Below are positions 103 through 12,542 of a DNA stretch of 64,000 bases, one piece after another. The notes beneath the pieces were generated by a model. The model had not been told where the DNA came from. It made no database searches and was given only the letters and a program-made list of their open reading frames with translations. Source of the DNA: Salinivirgaceae bacterium (GTDB taxonomy: Bacteria; Bacteroidota; Bacteroidia; Bacteroidales; SZUA-534); NCBI GenBank assembly GCA_016284875.1, contig JAEEPS010000004.1:11785-75784 (forward strand), written 5' to 3'. Position numbers and translations under genes: made by a program. Every line of letters begins with the position of its first letter. Position 1 is the first letter of the stretch.

Positions 103-3100
103 TTATTTCCCATTTCTGAAGCGCAGGTACATCGCTTCGGCCATCTCTTTCATAACGCGCTCGTAGAACTGCGGGTCCTCGAACAGTTTTGAGAAGGCGT
201 CCATCTGTTCCATATAGCACGTTTCGGCTATCTCGTGGAAAGCCTTGGGGAAGATTGCCGAAGTGAACATTGCGGCATCGGTGTTTTTGGCCTGCTTCTT
301 CAGGGTGTCGCTGCCTTTGCTCATCCTGTCGAAAATGGTTTCGACAATCACGCGGTCGGCTTCAGTGAATTTGCCTGCATACATTAAGTTGATTTTGTCG
401 ATAATGTTTGCAAGCAGGTCGCGCTTATCGGTTTTGAACGCTCCCTGACCGCCGTTTTCAGCCTTGACCTTGTTCTGGCCGTGCTCCAACTGTATGCTGC
501 CGCTGAAGGTCTCTGTCAACTTGTTGTTGATTAGGGCAATTTTGTTTGTCAGGTCGACTATTTCGTGCGGATTCTTGGGCAGAAGTTTGTAAAGATACTC
601 GGTGAAGATATAGGTCTTGTAGAGTTCCTTGTCGAATGTGCGCACCACCTGCGCCATATAGGCGTAGAAGCGGTTGAAGTTGTGAATGAGGAACCGCACC
701 TTGAACTTTTCCTCCTCGGCCAACGTCTCGTAAGCCGCCATTACCGATTTGAAGGCGCTTGCCAACTTGCCCATATCGGTGCTGCTCTGCTTGGTGGCGG
801 AATATATCTTATAGACTTTCTCCTCATCGTCGGTGTTCCAAAGGTGGAATTGCTGAACATCGTTCAAATACTTGTAAACCATATTTATATCGACGCCTTC
901 CTCGAGTAGCGTGTCCTCGTAGAACGGCTGGAACGATTTTTTAATGCTTTCGGTGTCGTTGCTGAAATCGAGGACATAGGTGTCGTTCTTGCCTGGGCAA
1001 CTGCGGTTAAGGCGCGACAGGGTTTGAACGGCCTTCACGCCGCGCAACTTCTTCAACACAAACATTGTGTGCAAAAGCGGCTCGTCGAAGCCTGTCTGGT
1101 ATTTTTCGGCAACAATAAGAATGTTGTACATATCGCTGGCAAAGAACAGCGGCAGTTTGCCTTCAGAAATCTTTTCGCCGTCGGCCGAGTTGATTTGGCT
1201 CTCGGTGTACTCCACTCCGTTGAATTTCACGGCGCCGCTGAAAGCCACAAGTGGTCTTACATCGTCGTAGCCCTTGTGCTTGCAGTAGTCGCGCATTGCA
1301 AAGTAGAAGCGCACTGCGTGGGCGCGCGAGGGCGAAACGACCATTGCCTTGGCGCGGCCGCCAATCTTGTGCAGGGTTATCTCGCGGAACTTCTCAACCA
1401 TTACCTCCACAAGTTGCTCAATGACAAACTTATGACTGTCGTGGAAAGCCTTGACGGCGCGTGTTGCGGGCGGTTCCTCGTATTCGGGATTGTCTGACAC
1501 CGACTTGGCAATCTCGTATGAGGTGCCAATGGTGGTGTAGAATTTCAGCACATCGAGAATGAACCCTTCGTCGATAGCCTGCCGCATACTGTAGTGGTGG
1601 AAGGCATCGTAGCCTTTGTCGGTTTTGACGCCGAAGGTTTCGAGTGTTTTGGGCTTTGGTGTGGCTGTAAAGGCGTAGAAATAGAGGTTCTTGTGCTGAC
1701 CCTGCGTGAGCAGCGTCTCCATCATCACGTCCATTTCGTCTTTGAGTTCGGCCTCGGTCTTCTCCTCAATTTCGGCCATCTCGCGCAATGCCTCGTCGGT
1801 GTCGGCAAGGGCGGCTTTCAGTTTCTCGGCACTCTTGCCCGACTGCGAACTGTGCGCTTCATCGACAATAATGGCGAAGTTCTTGCCAATATGCTCATCC
1901 AACTCCTTGTAAATGATTGGGAAACGGTGAAGCGTGGTTATAATGATTCGCTTGCGGTCGTTGATTGCGTCTTCGAGCACCGAAGAGTTGTCTTTGTCGG
2001 TGATTGTGGCAATCTGCCCTTCCAAATGCTCGAAACCGAGAATGGTTGACTGCAGTTGGGCGTTGAGCACGCGGCGGTCGGTTACCACAAACACGGTTTG
2101 GAACATCTCCTTGTCGAGGTCGTTGTGAAGCGAGGCAAGGCGGTAGGTGAGCCACGCTATTGAGTTTGACTTGCCGCTGCCCGCCGAATGCTGCAACAGA
2201 TAGTTCTTTCCGCCGCTGCTGGCTCTGGTGTCGGCAATGAGTTTCTCAACCACATCCAACTGGTGATAGCGCGGGAAAATGAGGTAGGTGCTTTTCTTTT
2301 TCACCTGCTTGCCTTTTTCGAGCGATATTTTCTCTTCGGTAATCTTCGATATATAGCGCTGAAGCAGCGAGAGCAACATCTCGCGGTTGAGCACACGCTC
2401 CCACAGGTACGAGGTTGGATAGCCATTGGGGTTTTCGGGGTTGCCGCCGTCGCCAATGTTGCCCGCGCCGTTGCTGCCCTGATTGAACGGCAGGAATCGT
2501 GTGGCGGCGCCCTGCAACTGGGTTGTCATTGCCACTTCGTAGAGGTCGACGGCAAAGTAAGCCAATATGCGGGTGTTGAAGTTGAAAATGAGTTCTTTGG
2601 GGTCGCGGTCGTACATAAACTGGTGTTTGCCGTTGGCTACGCTCTGCCCCGTGAGTTGGTTCTTCAACTCGAGCGCCACAACGGGAATGCCGTTGACCGA
2701 CAAAACCATATCAATGGTGTTGTGGTTGTCGGTTGAGTAGGCGAACTGGCGTGTGCACTGCAGAATGTTGGCGTTGTAGCGGTCCACCAAATCGAGGTTC
2801 AGACTGCTGGCAGGCTTGAAGAAACAGAACTTGATTGCCACGCCGCGGTCCTTCACTCCGTTGCGCAGAACGTGAATGAGGCCGTAGTTGGCCACATCGG
2901 CTTGGAAAACCTTGTAGAGTTGGTCGGCTGACTTGTCGCCATAGAGGTTGACATAGCGCTGCCACACCTTTGGCTGGGTGGCCTGAATGAACTGCAACAG
3001 CACTGGCATATCAATAGCCCGCCGCTTGTCGTAGGTGCTTTGGTCGCCTTTCAGATAGCCGCCTTCGTTAAGAAGATAGGCTTCTATGTCGTTCTCGAAG

Positions 3101-3120
3101 TTCTTCTCTTTGGTCTGCAT
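103..3120 (-). CDS. hsdR: Type I restriction enzyme R subunit (HsdR), 1005 aa
   Basis: The N-terminal nuclease region shows MVLSVNGIPVVALELKN. Helicase motifs present are a Walker A QHSAGSGKS and a DEAH box IIVDEAHSSQSG. It lies in an operon with hsdM and hsdS. Confidence 0.95.
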   Translation of the reverse strand: MQTKEKNFENDIEAYLLNEGGYLKGDQSTYDKRRAIDMPVLLQFIQATQPKVWQRYVNLYGDKSADQLYKVFQADVANYGLIHVLRNGVKDRGVAIKFCFFKPASSLNLDLVDRYNANILQCTRQFAYSTDNHNTIDMVLSVNGIPVVALELKNQLTGQSVANGKHQFMYDRDPKELIFNFNTRILAYFAVDLYEVAMTTQLQGAATRFLPFNQGSNGAGNIGDGGNPENPNGYPTSYLWERVLNREMLLSLLQRYISKITEEKISLEKGKQVKKKSTYLIFPRYHQLDVVEKLIADTRASSGGKNYLLQHSAGSGKSNSIAWLTYRLASLHNDLDKEMFQTVFVVTDRRVLNAQLQSTILGFEHLEGQIATITDKDNSSVLEDAINDRKRIIITTLHRFPIIYKELDEHIGKNFAIIVDEAHSSQSGKSAEKLKAALADTDEALREMAEIEEKTEAELKDEMDVMMETLLTQGQHKNLYFYAFTATPKPKTLETFGVKTDKGYDAFHHYSMRQAIDEGFILDVLKFYTTIGTSYEIAKSVSDNPEYEEPPATRAVKAFHDSHKFVIEQLVEVMVEKFREITLHKIGGRAKAMVVSPSRAHAVRFYFAMRDYCKHKGYDDVRPLVAFSGAVKFNGVEYTESQINSADGEKISEGKLPLFFASDMYNILIVAEKYQTGFDEPLLHTMFVLKKLRGVKAVQTLSRLNRSCPGKNDTYVLDFSNDTESIKKSFQPFYEDTLLEEGVDINMVYKYLNDVQQFHLWNTDDEEKVYKIYSATKQSSTDMGKLASAFKSVMAAYETLAEEEKFKVRFLIHNFNRFYAYMAQVVRTFDKELYKTYIFTEYLYKLLPKNPHEIVDLTNKIALINNKLTETFSGSIQLEHGQNKVKAENGGQGAFKTDKRDLLANIIDKINLMYAGKFTEADRVIVETIFDRMSKGSDTLKKQAKNTDAAMFTSAIFPKAFHEIAETCYMEQMDAFSKLFEDPQFYERVMKEMAEAMYLRFRNGK

Positions 3121-3139
3121 AACGATTTGCTATGAGTGA

Positions 3140-11605: not shown

Positions 11606-11833
11606 TCAGGCACCAGCCTTTTCTGTCATATCCCGATATAAGTCGGCAGGACCGAGGTGCCACAGTTTTGTCTCTTCCTGCTCCATATGTTTGTAGGTGT
11701 CTGACAGATACACTGCTTTGATAGCATCGATAAGGCTGACATTGCTGTGCTCCTGCACAAAACCAGCCATTCGGCTCACCTTCGATGGCAGCAACAAGTA
11801 CAAGTTCTGCTGGGTTATTTCTCCAATCATCAT
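11606..11833 (-). CDS. Small DUF3791-like protein (second copy)
   Basis: This is a 75-aa ORF overlapping the DUF3990 stop by 4 nt. Its size and position match the small partner genes that flank DUF3990. Similarity to the first copy is weak. Confidence 0.55.
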   Translation of the reverse strand: MMIGEITQQNLYLLLPSKVSRMAGFVQEHSNVSLIDAIKAVYLSDTYKHMEQEETKLWHLGPADLYRDMTEKAGA

Positions 11834-12321
11834 ATCCTTATCTCCTTTGCTTCAGCAAATATAATGCTTTTGAGCGAACGCGCAGTATGAAACAGATATT
11901 GGTCGATGAGTGAATATGTGCGCAGTTCTGCAATTAGCGCCTGTTTACCTATCACGCCACCCTCATACAATGCGAAAGCCGCATACACACGGTCGTTAGC
12001 CACAGGTCCATACACTATATCATAGTCGTGAGTAAATCCTTCCTGCATACGATTTGCCATCACAAAATCAACCCATTCTTCGGTGGGAGCCTGAAACGAT
12101 ATTGTTTTTAGTGATTGCATTGCATCGGTATCAAACTCATACACATTCACATAGCCAGTGTCCACTTTGTTTTCTTTCATACGCCGCTGCACCCACCGCA
12201 ACACTTGGTCGTACGATGTGGTTGTGTAGAATCCGTTTCCATAATCGAGTGTGCGCTTTGCTACTCTTATTTCAGGATTCTCAACCTTCTCTATGCTTCC
12301 GTGGTATAGTTTGATTTTCAT
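11830..12321 (-). CDS. DUF3990 domain protein (possible ART-fold)
   Basis: The N-terminus reads MKIKLYHGSIEKVENPEIRVAKRTLDYGNGFYTTTSYDQ, typical of DUF3990. It has 4-nt overlaps with both neighbouring small genes. Confidence 0.75.
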   Translation of the reverse strand: MKIKLYHGSIEKVENPEIRVAKRTLDYGNGFYTTTSYDQVLRWVQRRMKENKVDTGYVNVYEFDTDAMQSLKTISFQAPTEEWVDFVMANRMQEGFTHDYDIVYGPVANDRVYAAFALYEGGVIGKQALIAELRTYSLIDQYLFHTARSLKSIIFAEAKEIRI

Positions 12322-12542
12322 TTATTTTTCTTTTCTCTGATGCCAATATACTCATCAATATCTTCAAGTATCCACTGACAACTCTGTGTATGCAGTACAT
12401 CGTAGTTGTCTTCCAGATAACCGAGCACGCCAAATTTGTCGAGTTTCAGCATAGCCTGCTCGCCAGTCAGTTTTTTGGCATTCTTGTATTGCTCAATGCA
12501 GAACGATACAAAATAGGCAATGTCTTGCTCTCTGCTGCTCAT
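12318..12542 (-). CDS. DUF3791 domain protein
   Basis: The 74-aa sequence IAYFVSFCIEQYKNAKKLTGEQAMLKLDKFGVLGYLEDNYDVLHTQ matches the DUF3791 pattern. It lies directly upstream of DUF3990. Confidence 0.7.
   Translation of the reverse strand: MSSREQDIAYFVSFCIEQYKNAKKLTGEQAMLKLDKFGVLGYLEDNYDVLHTQSCQWILEDIDEYIGIREKKNK

Follow-up and report, generated by a model that had tools for sequence, protein, structure and literature searches.

How does a Type I restriction-modification (R-M) operon come to hold a series of further defence genes between its own subunit genes, and what might they add to restriction? This question is raised by a locus in the genome of a Salinivirgaceae bacterium (GenBank assembly GCA_016284875.1, contig JAEEPS010000004.1), of which we analysed a stretch of 64,000 nucleotides (nt) at positions 11,785 to 75,784 of the forward strand, in the following called the window. 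Coordinates are given in the numbering of this 64-kb window, and L-numbers (L005, L174 etc.) denote the loci that were compared with it. Accessory genes within hsd loci are familiar from the rlo ('R-M linked ORF') genes of Campylobacter jejuni. In the window the hsd array occupies positions 103-12542, with all genes on the minus strand according to open reading frame (ORF) calls and searches with Pfam, PADLOC and NCBIfam. In our view it is very likely a Type I R-M system that took up defence cargo, co-oriented with its own genes, in the two intergenic slots, that was built by recombination between hsd alleles and that would provide layered immunity. As a mosaic, the locus combines segments that stem from different alleles of a single hsd family, and its joints lie in conserved gene ends.

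In the direction of transcription the array consists of DUF3791, DUF3990, a third small gene, hsdM, DUF1016/YhcG, a relic ORF of 36 amino acids (aa), a 281-aa gene, hsdS, PDDEXK_4, an hsdS-tail relic, darT, darG and hsdR. Eight of the 11 junctions have either a 4-nt gap or an ATGA overlap. Wider junctions are found between the third of the small genes (together termed PDC-M13) and hsdM (128 nt), between PDDEXK_4 and darT (168 nt) and between darG and hsdR (19 nt), and a 7-nt gap separates the 36-aa relic ORF from the 281-aa gene. The same arrangement is present in three assemblies (GCA_016295205.1, GCA_016295295.1 and GCA_016648615.1) and is therefore not an assembly chimera or artefact. Slot 1, between hsdM and hsdS, contains the DUF1016/YhcG gene and a REase-ARP-like nuclease gene; slot 2, between hsdS and hsdR, contains PDDEXK_4 and the DarT/DarG pair. 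If embedding is taken to mean a position between the core genes of a known multi-gene defence system in the same orientation as these, then DUF1016, REase-ARP, PDDEXK_4 and DarTG are embedded, and PDC-M13 is an adjacent fifth module that is not embedded.

A first-pass annotation of the sequence had listed 14 elements in operon-like spacing. Twelve of them were recovered at their places on the minus strand by Pfam, PADLOC, NCBIfam and the repeat search, and the spacing is as had been described at the eight junctions mentioned. The remaining two, a third small ORF assigned to DUF3791 and a further hsdS-like fragment after hsdR, could not be confirmed (see below). The same annotation had counted four unrelated effector modules: four embedded modules are indeed present, and three of them are PD-(D/E)XK-type nucleases, so that not all are unrelated. 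Searches with hidden Markov models (HMMs) bore out the nuclease and ADP-ribosyltransferase assignments.

The backbone into which this cargo is inserted is predicted to be a complete Type I R-M system (hsdM, hsdS, hsdR), and its family is widespread among Bacteroidales of gut and rumen. The methyltransferase gene hsdM (9669-11477, 602 aa) matches the Pfam families HsdM_N (83.6 bits) and N6_Mtase (194.2 bits) as well as the PADLOC model MTase_I (711 bits), and the catalytic motif NPPF is intact in its translation (ISNPPFG). The specificity subunit gene hsdS (6308-7564; 418 aa if the ATG of MATKYKD is taken as the start) follows the stop codon of the 281-aa gene at a distance of 4 nt. It matches Pfam Methylase_S and, over residues 25-439 of the 440-aa hsdS ORF, PADLOC Specificity_I (297.9 bits), and both PPLA(T/E)Q conserved regions are present, as expected for a subunit with two target recognition domains. 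The restriction/translocase subunit gene hsdR (103-3120, 1005 aa) has Pfam matches to HSDR_N, ResIII/SWI2_SNF2 and a T1R_D3-like domain, and the motifs D...ELK, GSGKS and DEAH can be read in the translation; the match to an NCBIfam hsdR subfamily (176.9 bits) stays below the cut-off of that model (284.55 bits). HsdR is 88-90% identical to its counterparts in L005, L006, L009 and L174-L177. The head and the tail of hsdS are conserved across the relatives, with a body that is just 31-54% identical. Along positions 1-13000 the guanine-cytosine (GC) content was approximately 0.53 in hsdR, 0.38-0.43 in darT, PDDEXK_4, hsdS and the 281-aa gene, 0.53-0.55 in hsdM and 0.36-0.44 in PDC-M13. Overall hsdM and hsdR lie at about 0.50-0.55 and hsdS with most of the cargo at about 0.38-0.45, a mosaic that fits separate origins of backbone and cargo.

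The first embedded gene starts 4 nt after the hsdM stop and encodes a DUF1016/YhcG nuclease of the PD-(D/E)XK type (8537-9664, minus strand, 375 aa). It matches YhcG_C (175.9 bits) and DUF1016_N (106.9 bits) in Pfam and belongs to PDC-S02 in PADLOC (438.5 bits, covering 3-346 of 351). The second gene of slot 1 (7569-8414, minus strand, 281 aa) had been noticed in the first-pass annotation as an ORF of unknown nature; the ORF stands, and by motif and family it is a putative REase-ARP-like PD-(D/E)XK nuclease. A database search retrieved 210 homologues, many with a precomputed match to PF22558 (REase-ARP), and across 29 aligned homologues the residues D104, E117 and K119, a classical PD-(D/E)XK signature, are invariant. 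The protein had no match to any model of PADLOC v2.0.0. Its AlphaFold2 model is confident, with a predicted local distance difference test score (pLDDT) of 84.6, and a profile search against the PDB returned 1Y88 alone, below significance (E = 0.17). The name REase-ARP-like nuclease is used here because of the motif and family evidence, not because of fold evidence.

Homologues of the 281-aa protein occur between hsdM and hsdS (L085 and L086; 66% identity, 4-nt gaps), after DEAD/MZB and UvrD helicase genes, and directly after WYL regulator genes. In L087 (1-12196), genes for a 2077-aa DEAD/MZB helicase and a UvrD helicase precede a homologue with 40% identity, and a second REase-ARP/PDDEXK_13 gene follows a WYL regulator; in L091-L093 a homologue of the 281-aa protein stands directly after a WYL gene. 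Given the helicase and WYL neighbours, the REase-ARP-like family therefore has several defence-like contexts outside R-M.

In slot 2, the start of the PDDEXK_4 gene (5016-6311, minus strand, 431 aa) overlaps the hsdS stop as ATGA. The encoded nuclease matches PF14281 (65.8 bits) and belongs to PDC-S26 (130.8 bits, covering 11-402 of 413); a homologue with 65% identity occupies the same slot in L005. All three nucleases carry the pattern D...(D/E)xK, which reads VDLV...LIDLK in the DUF1016 protein, RIDGV...IIENK in PDDEXK_4 and NLDV...VESK in the 281-aa protein. The fourth module is a toxin-antitoxin pair. The toxin gene darT (4209-4847, minus strand, 212 aa) encodes a predicted single-stranded DNA thymidine ADP-ribosyltransferase that matches Pfam DarT with 160.6 bits (1-201 of 201) and the DarT model of PADLOC, and that exceeds the equivalog cut-off of NCBIfam toxin_DarT NF048013 (172.5 versus 150 bits). 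The antitoxin gene darG (3140-4204, minus strand, 354 aa) starts 4 nt after the darT stop, which completes the pair; the encoded macrodomain protein matches Pfam Macro and PADLOC DarG (371.5 bits) and exceeds the cut-off of antitoxin_DarG NF048014 (382.2 versus 250 bits, over 1-337 of 338), as expected for an N-terminal macrodomain followed by a C-terminal domain that neutralises DarT. Those DarG homologues from the protein database that come closest (87-93%) all have hsdR as the next gene. A scan of Joint Genome Institute (JGI) metagenomes gave 80 loci with DarG, of which few, distant ones adjoin hsd genes; with their closest DarTG (74%) in a glycosyltransferase cluster, these loci were discarded as a candidate DarTG donor.

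Traces of how the array was assembled are found at its junctions. A direct-repeat search of the window returned three repeats of coding pieces, all far beyond chance. In repeat D1, positions 8411-8520 are a copy of positions 9661-9770 from the hsdM tail (110 nt, 84% identical); in D2, positions 4925-4983 copy 6311-6369 from the hsdS tail (59 nt, 81% identical); and in D4, positions 8512-8543 copy 7544-7575, the junction and start of hsdS (32 nt, 97% identical). Inverted hsdS repeats were not found in this search. The suggestion of insertion scars in the first-pass annotation was thus correct in that the hsdM-tail and the hsdS-tail relic both duplicate resident gene ends.

Scar 1 (8422-8532, minus strand) is an intact chimeric ORF of 36 aa, MATKYKYVPLESSDNIFAHLKELGARETELMNKILG, composed of the start of hsdS and the tail of hsdM. 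Its first six codons are the hsdS start MATKYK (ATGGCTACAAAATACAAA) and the remainder is the hsdM tail YVPLESS...NKILG (TACAAATACGTG...), both joined at a 6-nt microhomology, TACAAA, that is present in both parents. The copied hsdM tail agrees with the resident one in all of its first 54 nt, and its last 45 nt carry 13 mismatches with 6 synonymous and 3 non-synonymous codon changes. In their 5' part, both hsdM-tail copies share bases that are absent from ten related alleles. A one-step unequal crossover was considered for this scar and rejected, as it leaves the identical, lineage-specific 54 nt at the 5' side unexplained. Scar 2 (4925-4983, minus strand), which corresponds to repeat D2, is a remnant of a replaced hsdS 3' end that closes with HYKKSVIFESVTGKKEI before the stop and that keeps the hsdS frame without a start codon. 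The two hsdS tails belong to two allele types: the ending of scar 2 is L066-like, and the resident tail, which closes with TGKKEVEK, is L005-like.

The origin of scar 2 can be read from a sister locus, L174, which, like L175-L177, was retrieved from the protein database through its close DarG homologue. It lies on a 26.7-kb contig and has the order hsdM, REase-ARP, DUF1016, hsdS, DarT, DarG, hsdR. Identities to the window proteins are 89% for hsdM, 36% for REase-ARP, 93% for DUF1016, 41% for hsdS, 77% for DarT, 87% for DarG and 88% for hsdR. Window positions 4978 to 103 are colinear with positions 8226 to 13104 of L174 (78% over 4,895 nt), a block that begins in the hsdS tail, contains darT and darG and ends with hsdR. 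Scar 2 is hence what remains of an hsdS that used to stand directly before darT, an order which L174 has kept. The body of this earlier hsdS has been replaced by the resident hsdS together with PDDEXK_4, a pair whose closest counterpart is in L005. On the side of slot 1, window positions 9666 to 8512 correspond to L174 positions 5826 to 6980 at 90.7% identity, a segment in which the native junction between DUF1016 and the hsdS head is preserved. In the window the hsdS head after DUF1016 is cut at 18 nt and fused to the hsdM tail, bringing in the 281-aa gene. The two slot-1 nuclease families have the reversed order in L174 compared to the window.

To place the window among its relatives, one genome per species was scanned, which provided 80 loci with an HsdM 64-90% identical to that of the window. 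Most of them belong to bins of Bacteroidales, Prevotella, Alistipes, Muribaculaceae and Paludibacteraceae that were recovered from rumen and gut samples. The 56 loci with hsdM, hsdS and hsdR in this order formed the comparison set, in which co-oriented embedded ORFs of at least 100 aa were counted as cargo. At least 600 bp lie between hsdM and hsdS in 24 of the 56 loci and between hsdS and hsdR in 34. Cargo was found in 46 of the 56 loci, with no cargo ORF in 10, one in 20, two in 16, three in 7 and four in 3. The window, with five cargo genes in four modules and 5.3 kb of cargo, stands at the top of a continuous range, the next locus being L016 with 5.07 kb. Of the 88 cargo ORFs in the whole set, 85 have the orientation of the hsd genes, and clustering by sequence divided the cargo into more than 40 groups. 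The annotated cargo is mostly of defence type: Pfam searches with cargo representatives returned ApeA-HEPN, two kinds of Fic, DUF1016, NOV_C, GmrSD, Schlafen/AlbA_2, RhuM, AAA_14/DUF4143, AbiH and a CAP12/Pycsar-type TIR domain.

The cargo turns over much faster than the hsdM backbone diverges. Among 15 pairs of loci with HsdM at least 95% identical just two had an identical cargo set, and one of these two pairs has no cargo. Alleles of single-cargo parent type exist for each embedded module: hsdM-DUF1016-hsdS (L063, L066, L013), hsdM-REaseARP-hsdS (L085, L010), hsdS-PDDEXK4-hsdR (L005) and hsdS-DarTG-hsdR (L174-L176). Scars beside cargo are present in at least eight other loci altogether, either as direct repeats of a junction or gene end (L019, L038, L063, L064, L082 and L035/L039/L040) or as extra hsdS tails (L009, L010, L063). 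The reading of the first-pass annotation that the hsd genes are a recombination hotspot is supported by this variability between conserved hsd genes, by the recurrent scars and by the permuted sister locus; a gene order fixed in all relatives was not found, and the cargo is highly variable.

Two of the relatives deserve separate mention. In L009 (13569-14291) and L063 (14244-14948), a cargo protein of 234-240 aa without Pfam match ends in hsdS C-terminal sequence, which reads KKSVIFEYVTGKKEVEE in L009 and which in L063 is implied by a 58-nt hsdS-tail repeat at 14884-14941. Judged by these endings, a recombination scar was evidently absorbed into the reading frame of the cargo. In L085 (3185-8076), ART-PolyVal-like and NADAR genes stand directly upstream of the hsdM-REaseARP-hsdS unit, and no hsdR is nearby. 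This is another ADP-ribosylation module upstream of hsdM, like PDC-M13 in the window, and its surroundings (S24 peptidase, UmuC-like polymerase, C5 methylase) have the look of a mobile element.

The following course of events would account for such a mosaic. Related hsd alleles would meet after horizontal transfer, with hsdM, hsdR and the head and tail of hsdS serving as homology anchors. Exchange would proceed by homologous recombination at one end and by an illegitimate join at the other, at short microhomology where the join is readable. Incoming cargo would land beside the resident cargo and not in its place, and the hsdS-head/hsdM-tail chimera and the hsdS tail would be the leftovers. In the general mechanism of homology-facilitated illegitimate recombination, one end is anchored by homology and the other is joined where a few bases of microhomology are available, which matches what is proposed here. 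This mechanism was reportedly described for natural transformation by de Vries and Wackernagel in 2002 and by Prudhomme et al. in 2002. The TACAAA join between hsdS head and hsdM tail in scar 1 is of this type, and the role of the mechanism at the present locus would be deduced from such sequence footprints. To our knowledge Bacteroidales are not known as naturally transformable, which makes entry of the DNA by conjugation or transduction more likely. Once in place, the cargo would be inherited and transferred together with the R-M genes. Restriction would act first, and the embedded nucleases and DarT would act as independent or back-up effectors.

Several observations weigh against this account of assembly and function. 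The identity and lineage specificity of the 5' 54 nt of the hsdM-tail copies require more than one event, i.e. gene conversion or in-situ duplication besides inter-allelic exchange. DarTG was not found among the 80 species-representative hsdM loci, and the closest DarTG of the JGI scan lies outside R-M. As to function, PDC-S02, PDC-S26 and PDC-M13 are candidates by genomic context alone (10.1101/2024.01.29.577857). For the 281-aa protein, the score against PF22558 is 26.9 bits at a cut-off of 27, i.e. 0.1 bit below it, and a Foldseek search with its model gave no significant PDB fold match and nothing with E below 0.1, the best being the R.BspD6I small subunit (E = 0.17). Co-transcription is read from spacing alone: the tight co-oriented packing would fit a polycistronic, translationally coupled expression. 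Finally, the full Bacteroides -33/-7 pattern TTTG-N17-23-TAnnTTTG had no match, and a scan with sigma-70 and terminator consensus sequences was no better than shuffled sequences for terminators and uninformative for promoters.

Alternatively, the cargo genes could be functional accessories of the restriction enzyme, checked or activated via HsdMSR as in the model case of PrrC and EcoprrI. By this analogy one would point to PrrC being almost exclusively embedded in Type I R-M and regulated by it (10.1101/2024.01.29.577857), to the tight, co-oriented and probably translationally coupled packing of the cargo, and to the position of darTG between a probable promoter and hsdR. A dedicated accessory is nevertheless hard to reconcile with cargo that is highly variable among near-identical hsd backbones and lacking in 10 of the 56 loci. 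Both DarTG and REase-ARP were also encountered outside R-M, the former in a glycosyltransferase cluster, the latter beside helicases or WYL regulators, and we consider an accessory function unlikely.

The patchy distribution among near-identical backbones would equally be expected if the single-gene nucleases were selfish elements, similar to free-standing homing endonuclease genes, that copy themselves into empty hsd junctions and for which defence is not the main role. Predicted nucleases of the PD-(D/E)XK type account for three of the four embedded modules, and they sit exactly at gene junctions, some with flanking junction duplications. Much of the cargo in the relatives is, however, not a DNA nuclease (Fic, ApeA-HEPN, the TIR-domain protein, AbiH, RhuM, AAA_14), the duplications differ in extent and position without a fixed target site, and scar 2 is explained by hsdS replacement and not by insertion; we thus regard selfish nucleases as highly improbable. 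The short repeats that flank the cassettes may also be taken as recombination sites of an integron- or shufflon-like, site-specific system, in line with a similar stop-ACT-ATGGC linker at several junctions of the window and L174 and with the permuted order of the slot-1 cargo families between both loci. Against this, the genes called up to 10 kb to the left and right include no integrase or invertase domain, hairpin formation by the DNA of the junction relics does not exceed that of shuffled controls (z = 0.09 to 1.76), and inverted hsdS repeats are absent, the repeats being coding pieces of differing length and identity (81-97%). Cassette movement by site-specific recombination is hence scarcely credible. 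Recombination between hsd alleles is in our opinion the reading to be preferred. In a more far-reaching version of it, which we put forward tentatively and would rather doubt than accept, the hsd genes would be an integrase-free cassette platform with docking homology in hsdM, hsdR and the head and tail of hsdS. On such a platform cassettes would be stacked, swapped and re-ordered while remaining translationally coupled, scars would be its general record, and the REase-ARP-like nuclease would be an uncatalogued embedded defence gene.

The arrangement of the genes provides indications of how the array may be expressed. A Bacteroidetes-type -7 box (TAnnTTTG), TAACTTTG, lies at 4888-4895 on the minus strand, 48 nt upstream of the darT ATG, and is a putative promoter element. 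It is one of four minus-strand matches to TAnnTTTG in positions 1-13000, the sole intergenic one among them, and it is conserved at the same position in L174. This conserved box before darT suggests at least two transcription units rather than one. The 128-nt gap upstream of hsdM (11478-11605) contains no exact TAnnTTTG box; it probably holds the hsdM promoter, which would make PDC-M13 an adjacent unit rather than an embedded one. At least two units are thus probably to be expected, one starting from the gap before hsdM, in which the 4-nt gaps and ATGA overlaps would lead to translationally coupled expression, and a second one starting in the 168-nt gap and driving darT, darG and hsdR. PDC-M13 may form a third transcription unit. 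A functional TAACTTTG would place the transcription of hsdR under a promoter upstream of darTG.

The PDC-M13 module upstream of this gap consists of three adjacent minus-strand genes, which the models A, B and C of PADLOC match in this order. Gene A (12318-12542, 74 aa) is a DUF3791 gene (PF12668, 75.6 bits; PDC-M13A, 114 bits). Gene B (11830-12321, 163 aa), which overlaps gene A by 4 nt, is a DUF3990 gene (PF13151, 159.5 bits; PDC-M13B, 205 bits), and DUF3990 is listed in the ADP-ribosyltransferase clan of Pfam (PMC7955679). Gene C (11606-11833, 75 aa), which overlaps gene B by 4 nt, matches PDC-M13C with 103.5 bits. This is the third small ORF that the first-pass annotation had called a second DUF3791, an assignment we could not reproduce: no Pfam DUF3791 match was obtained even at E values up to 10, and the similarity of gene C to gene A is in register and weak (E = 0.023).

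That Type I R-M loci are hotspots in which defence genes become embedded is correct and has already been published. Payne, Hughes, Fineran and Jackson described defence genes embedded in Type I R-M, BREX, DISARM and Hma loci as 'guilt-by-embedding', found 96.7% of embedded genes in the same orientation and predicted 145 candidates, which are the PDC families of PADLOC (10.1101/2024.01.29.577857). Their discussion already covers the idea of a genomic sink, linked transfer, co-regulation and back-up roles like that of PrrC, and the purpose of embedding was left open (10.1101/2024.01.29.577857). The present loci resemble theirs in the co-oriented genes nested among hsdM, hsdS and hsdR (85 of 88 here compared to 96.7%), and PDC-S02, PDC-S26 and PDC-M13 are candidates of that study. 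They differ in that the window has four modules in two slots and a fifth adjacent one, compared to a maximum of four cargo genes among the 56 relatives, and in that the scars are readable; the available text of that study holds no analysis of the molecular route of embedding. PrrC, the anticodon nuclease embedded in the Type Ic system EcoprrI, is silenced until a phage inhibitor strikes (10.1101/2024.01.29.577857). It is the paradigm of a back-up effector for the case that R-M is inhibited, and the window shares with it an effector gene inside the hsd operon. In contrast to EcoprrI, no PrrC/ABC-ATPase homologue is present here, and the effectors are PD-(D/E)XK nucleases and a DNA ADP-ribosyltransferase.

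The closest counterpart to slot 2 is the RRDM island of enteropathogenic Escherichia coli (EPEC) E2348/69, which comprises RptR, hsdM, hsdS, DarTG2 and hsdR and which is regulated and phage-protective; its hsdS-hsdR site was named a potential recombination hotspot (PMC12255303). Both loci have DarTG between hsdS and hsdR of a Type I system. They differ in host phylum, in the three further nucleases embedded here, and in the region upstream, where no RptR-like regulator was seen in the window and PDC-M13 is found instead. Repression of the EPEC island takes place at a promoter with which the island begins, whereas in the window the candidate promoter box lies directly upstream of darT. DUF1016 and RhuM genes have been recorded between Type I core genes, enriched beside hsdS (PMC9881135), and both also occur in the relatives analysed here. 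Those cases were described as single insertions without an analysis of scars or stacking, and the window differs further by the absence of inverted hsdS copies and of an invertase.

The surroundings of the array were inspected as well. Upstream lie MazG, a BlaR1/BlaI-like pair and suf genes: the MazG-type nucleotide pyrophosphohydrolase gene (12983-13318, plus strand) is divergent from the island, and the BlaR1 (M56 peptidase)/BlaI-like repressor pair follows just beyond (13415-16236, minus strand). MazG is the neighbour in none of the 80 relatives, and the R-M locus therefore sits at different chromosomal places. In the region after hsdR (1-102, minus strand) lies a 48-aa ORF without Pfam match. 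The further hsdS-like fragment that had been proposed for the sequence below position 103 was rejected as unconfirmed: blastn-short and blastx searches against 57 hsdS genes remained at chance level (E at least 0.3), and what is left is one common PPLAT pentapeptide. Beyond hsdR and outside the window follow a 225-aa ORF without Pfam match, Fic-HTH and AlbA_2/HATPase_c_4 C-terminal fragments, tRNA-Ser(GCT) and then housekeeping genes. The Fic-HTH and the Schlafen AlbA_2/HATPase_c_4 fragments lie at positions 13873-14567 of L003 (about 0.75-1.45 kb past the window start, downstream of hsdR), beside tandem peptide repeats (TTQK, FTVQ), and they look like decayed earlier cargo because both families are common cargo in related hsd loci. 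The tRNA-Ser(GCT) gene (L003, 14922-15010) lies about 1.9 kb downstream of hsdR, such that the island is located between MazG and the tRNA gene. A tRNA-linked integration of the island was considered for this reason and dismissed, as none of the called genes within 10 kb on either side of the array is an integrase. A search of positions 1-16000 with Rfam gave no match. Long plus-strand ORFs opposite hsdM and DUF1016 (e.g. 8399-9376 and 9651-10631) were treated as antisense shadow ORFs.

The current picture of defence islands remains unchanged by this locus, which is a good illustration rather than a surprise. What it adds is an unusually full example, scars together with a sister allele that explains one of them, a very fast cargo turnover within one hsd family, and a candidate family. 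With readable scars and with single-cargo and re-ordered sister alleles at hand, the origin of embedding therefore becomes concretely testable. The REase-ARP-like family is nominated as a defence candidate by the accepted embedding criterion. With three PD-(D/E)XK nucleases and DarTG in one restriction system and an ADP-ribosyltransferase-like module adjacent to it, the array would be a compact natural example of layered immunity. It also suggests that hsdR expression in Bacteroidales may come from a promoter that arrived with the darTG cassette.

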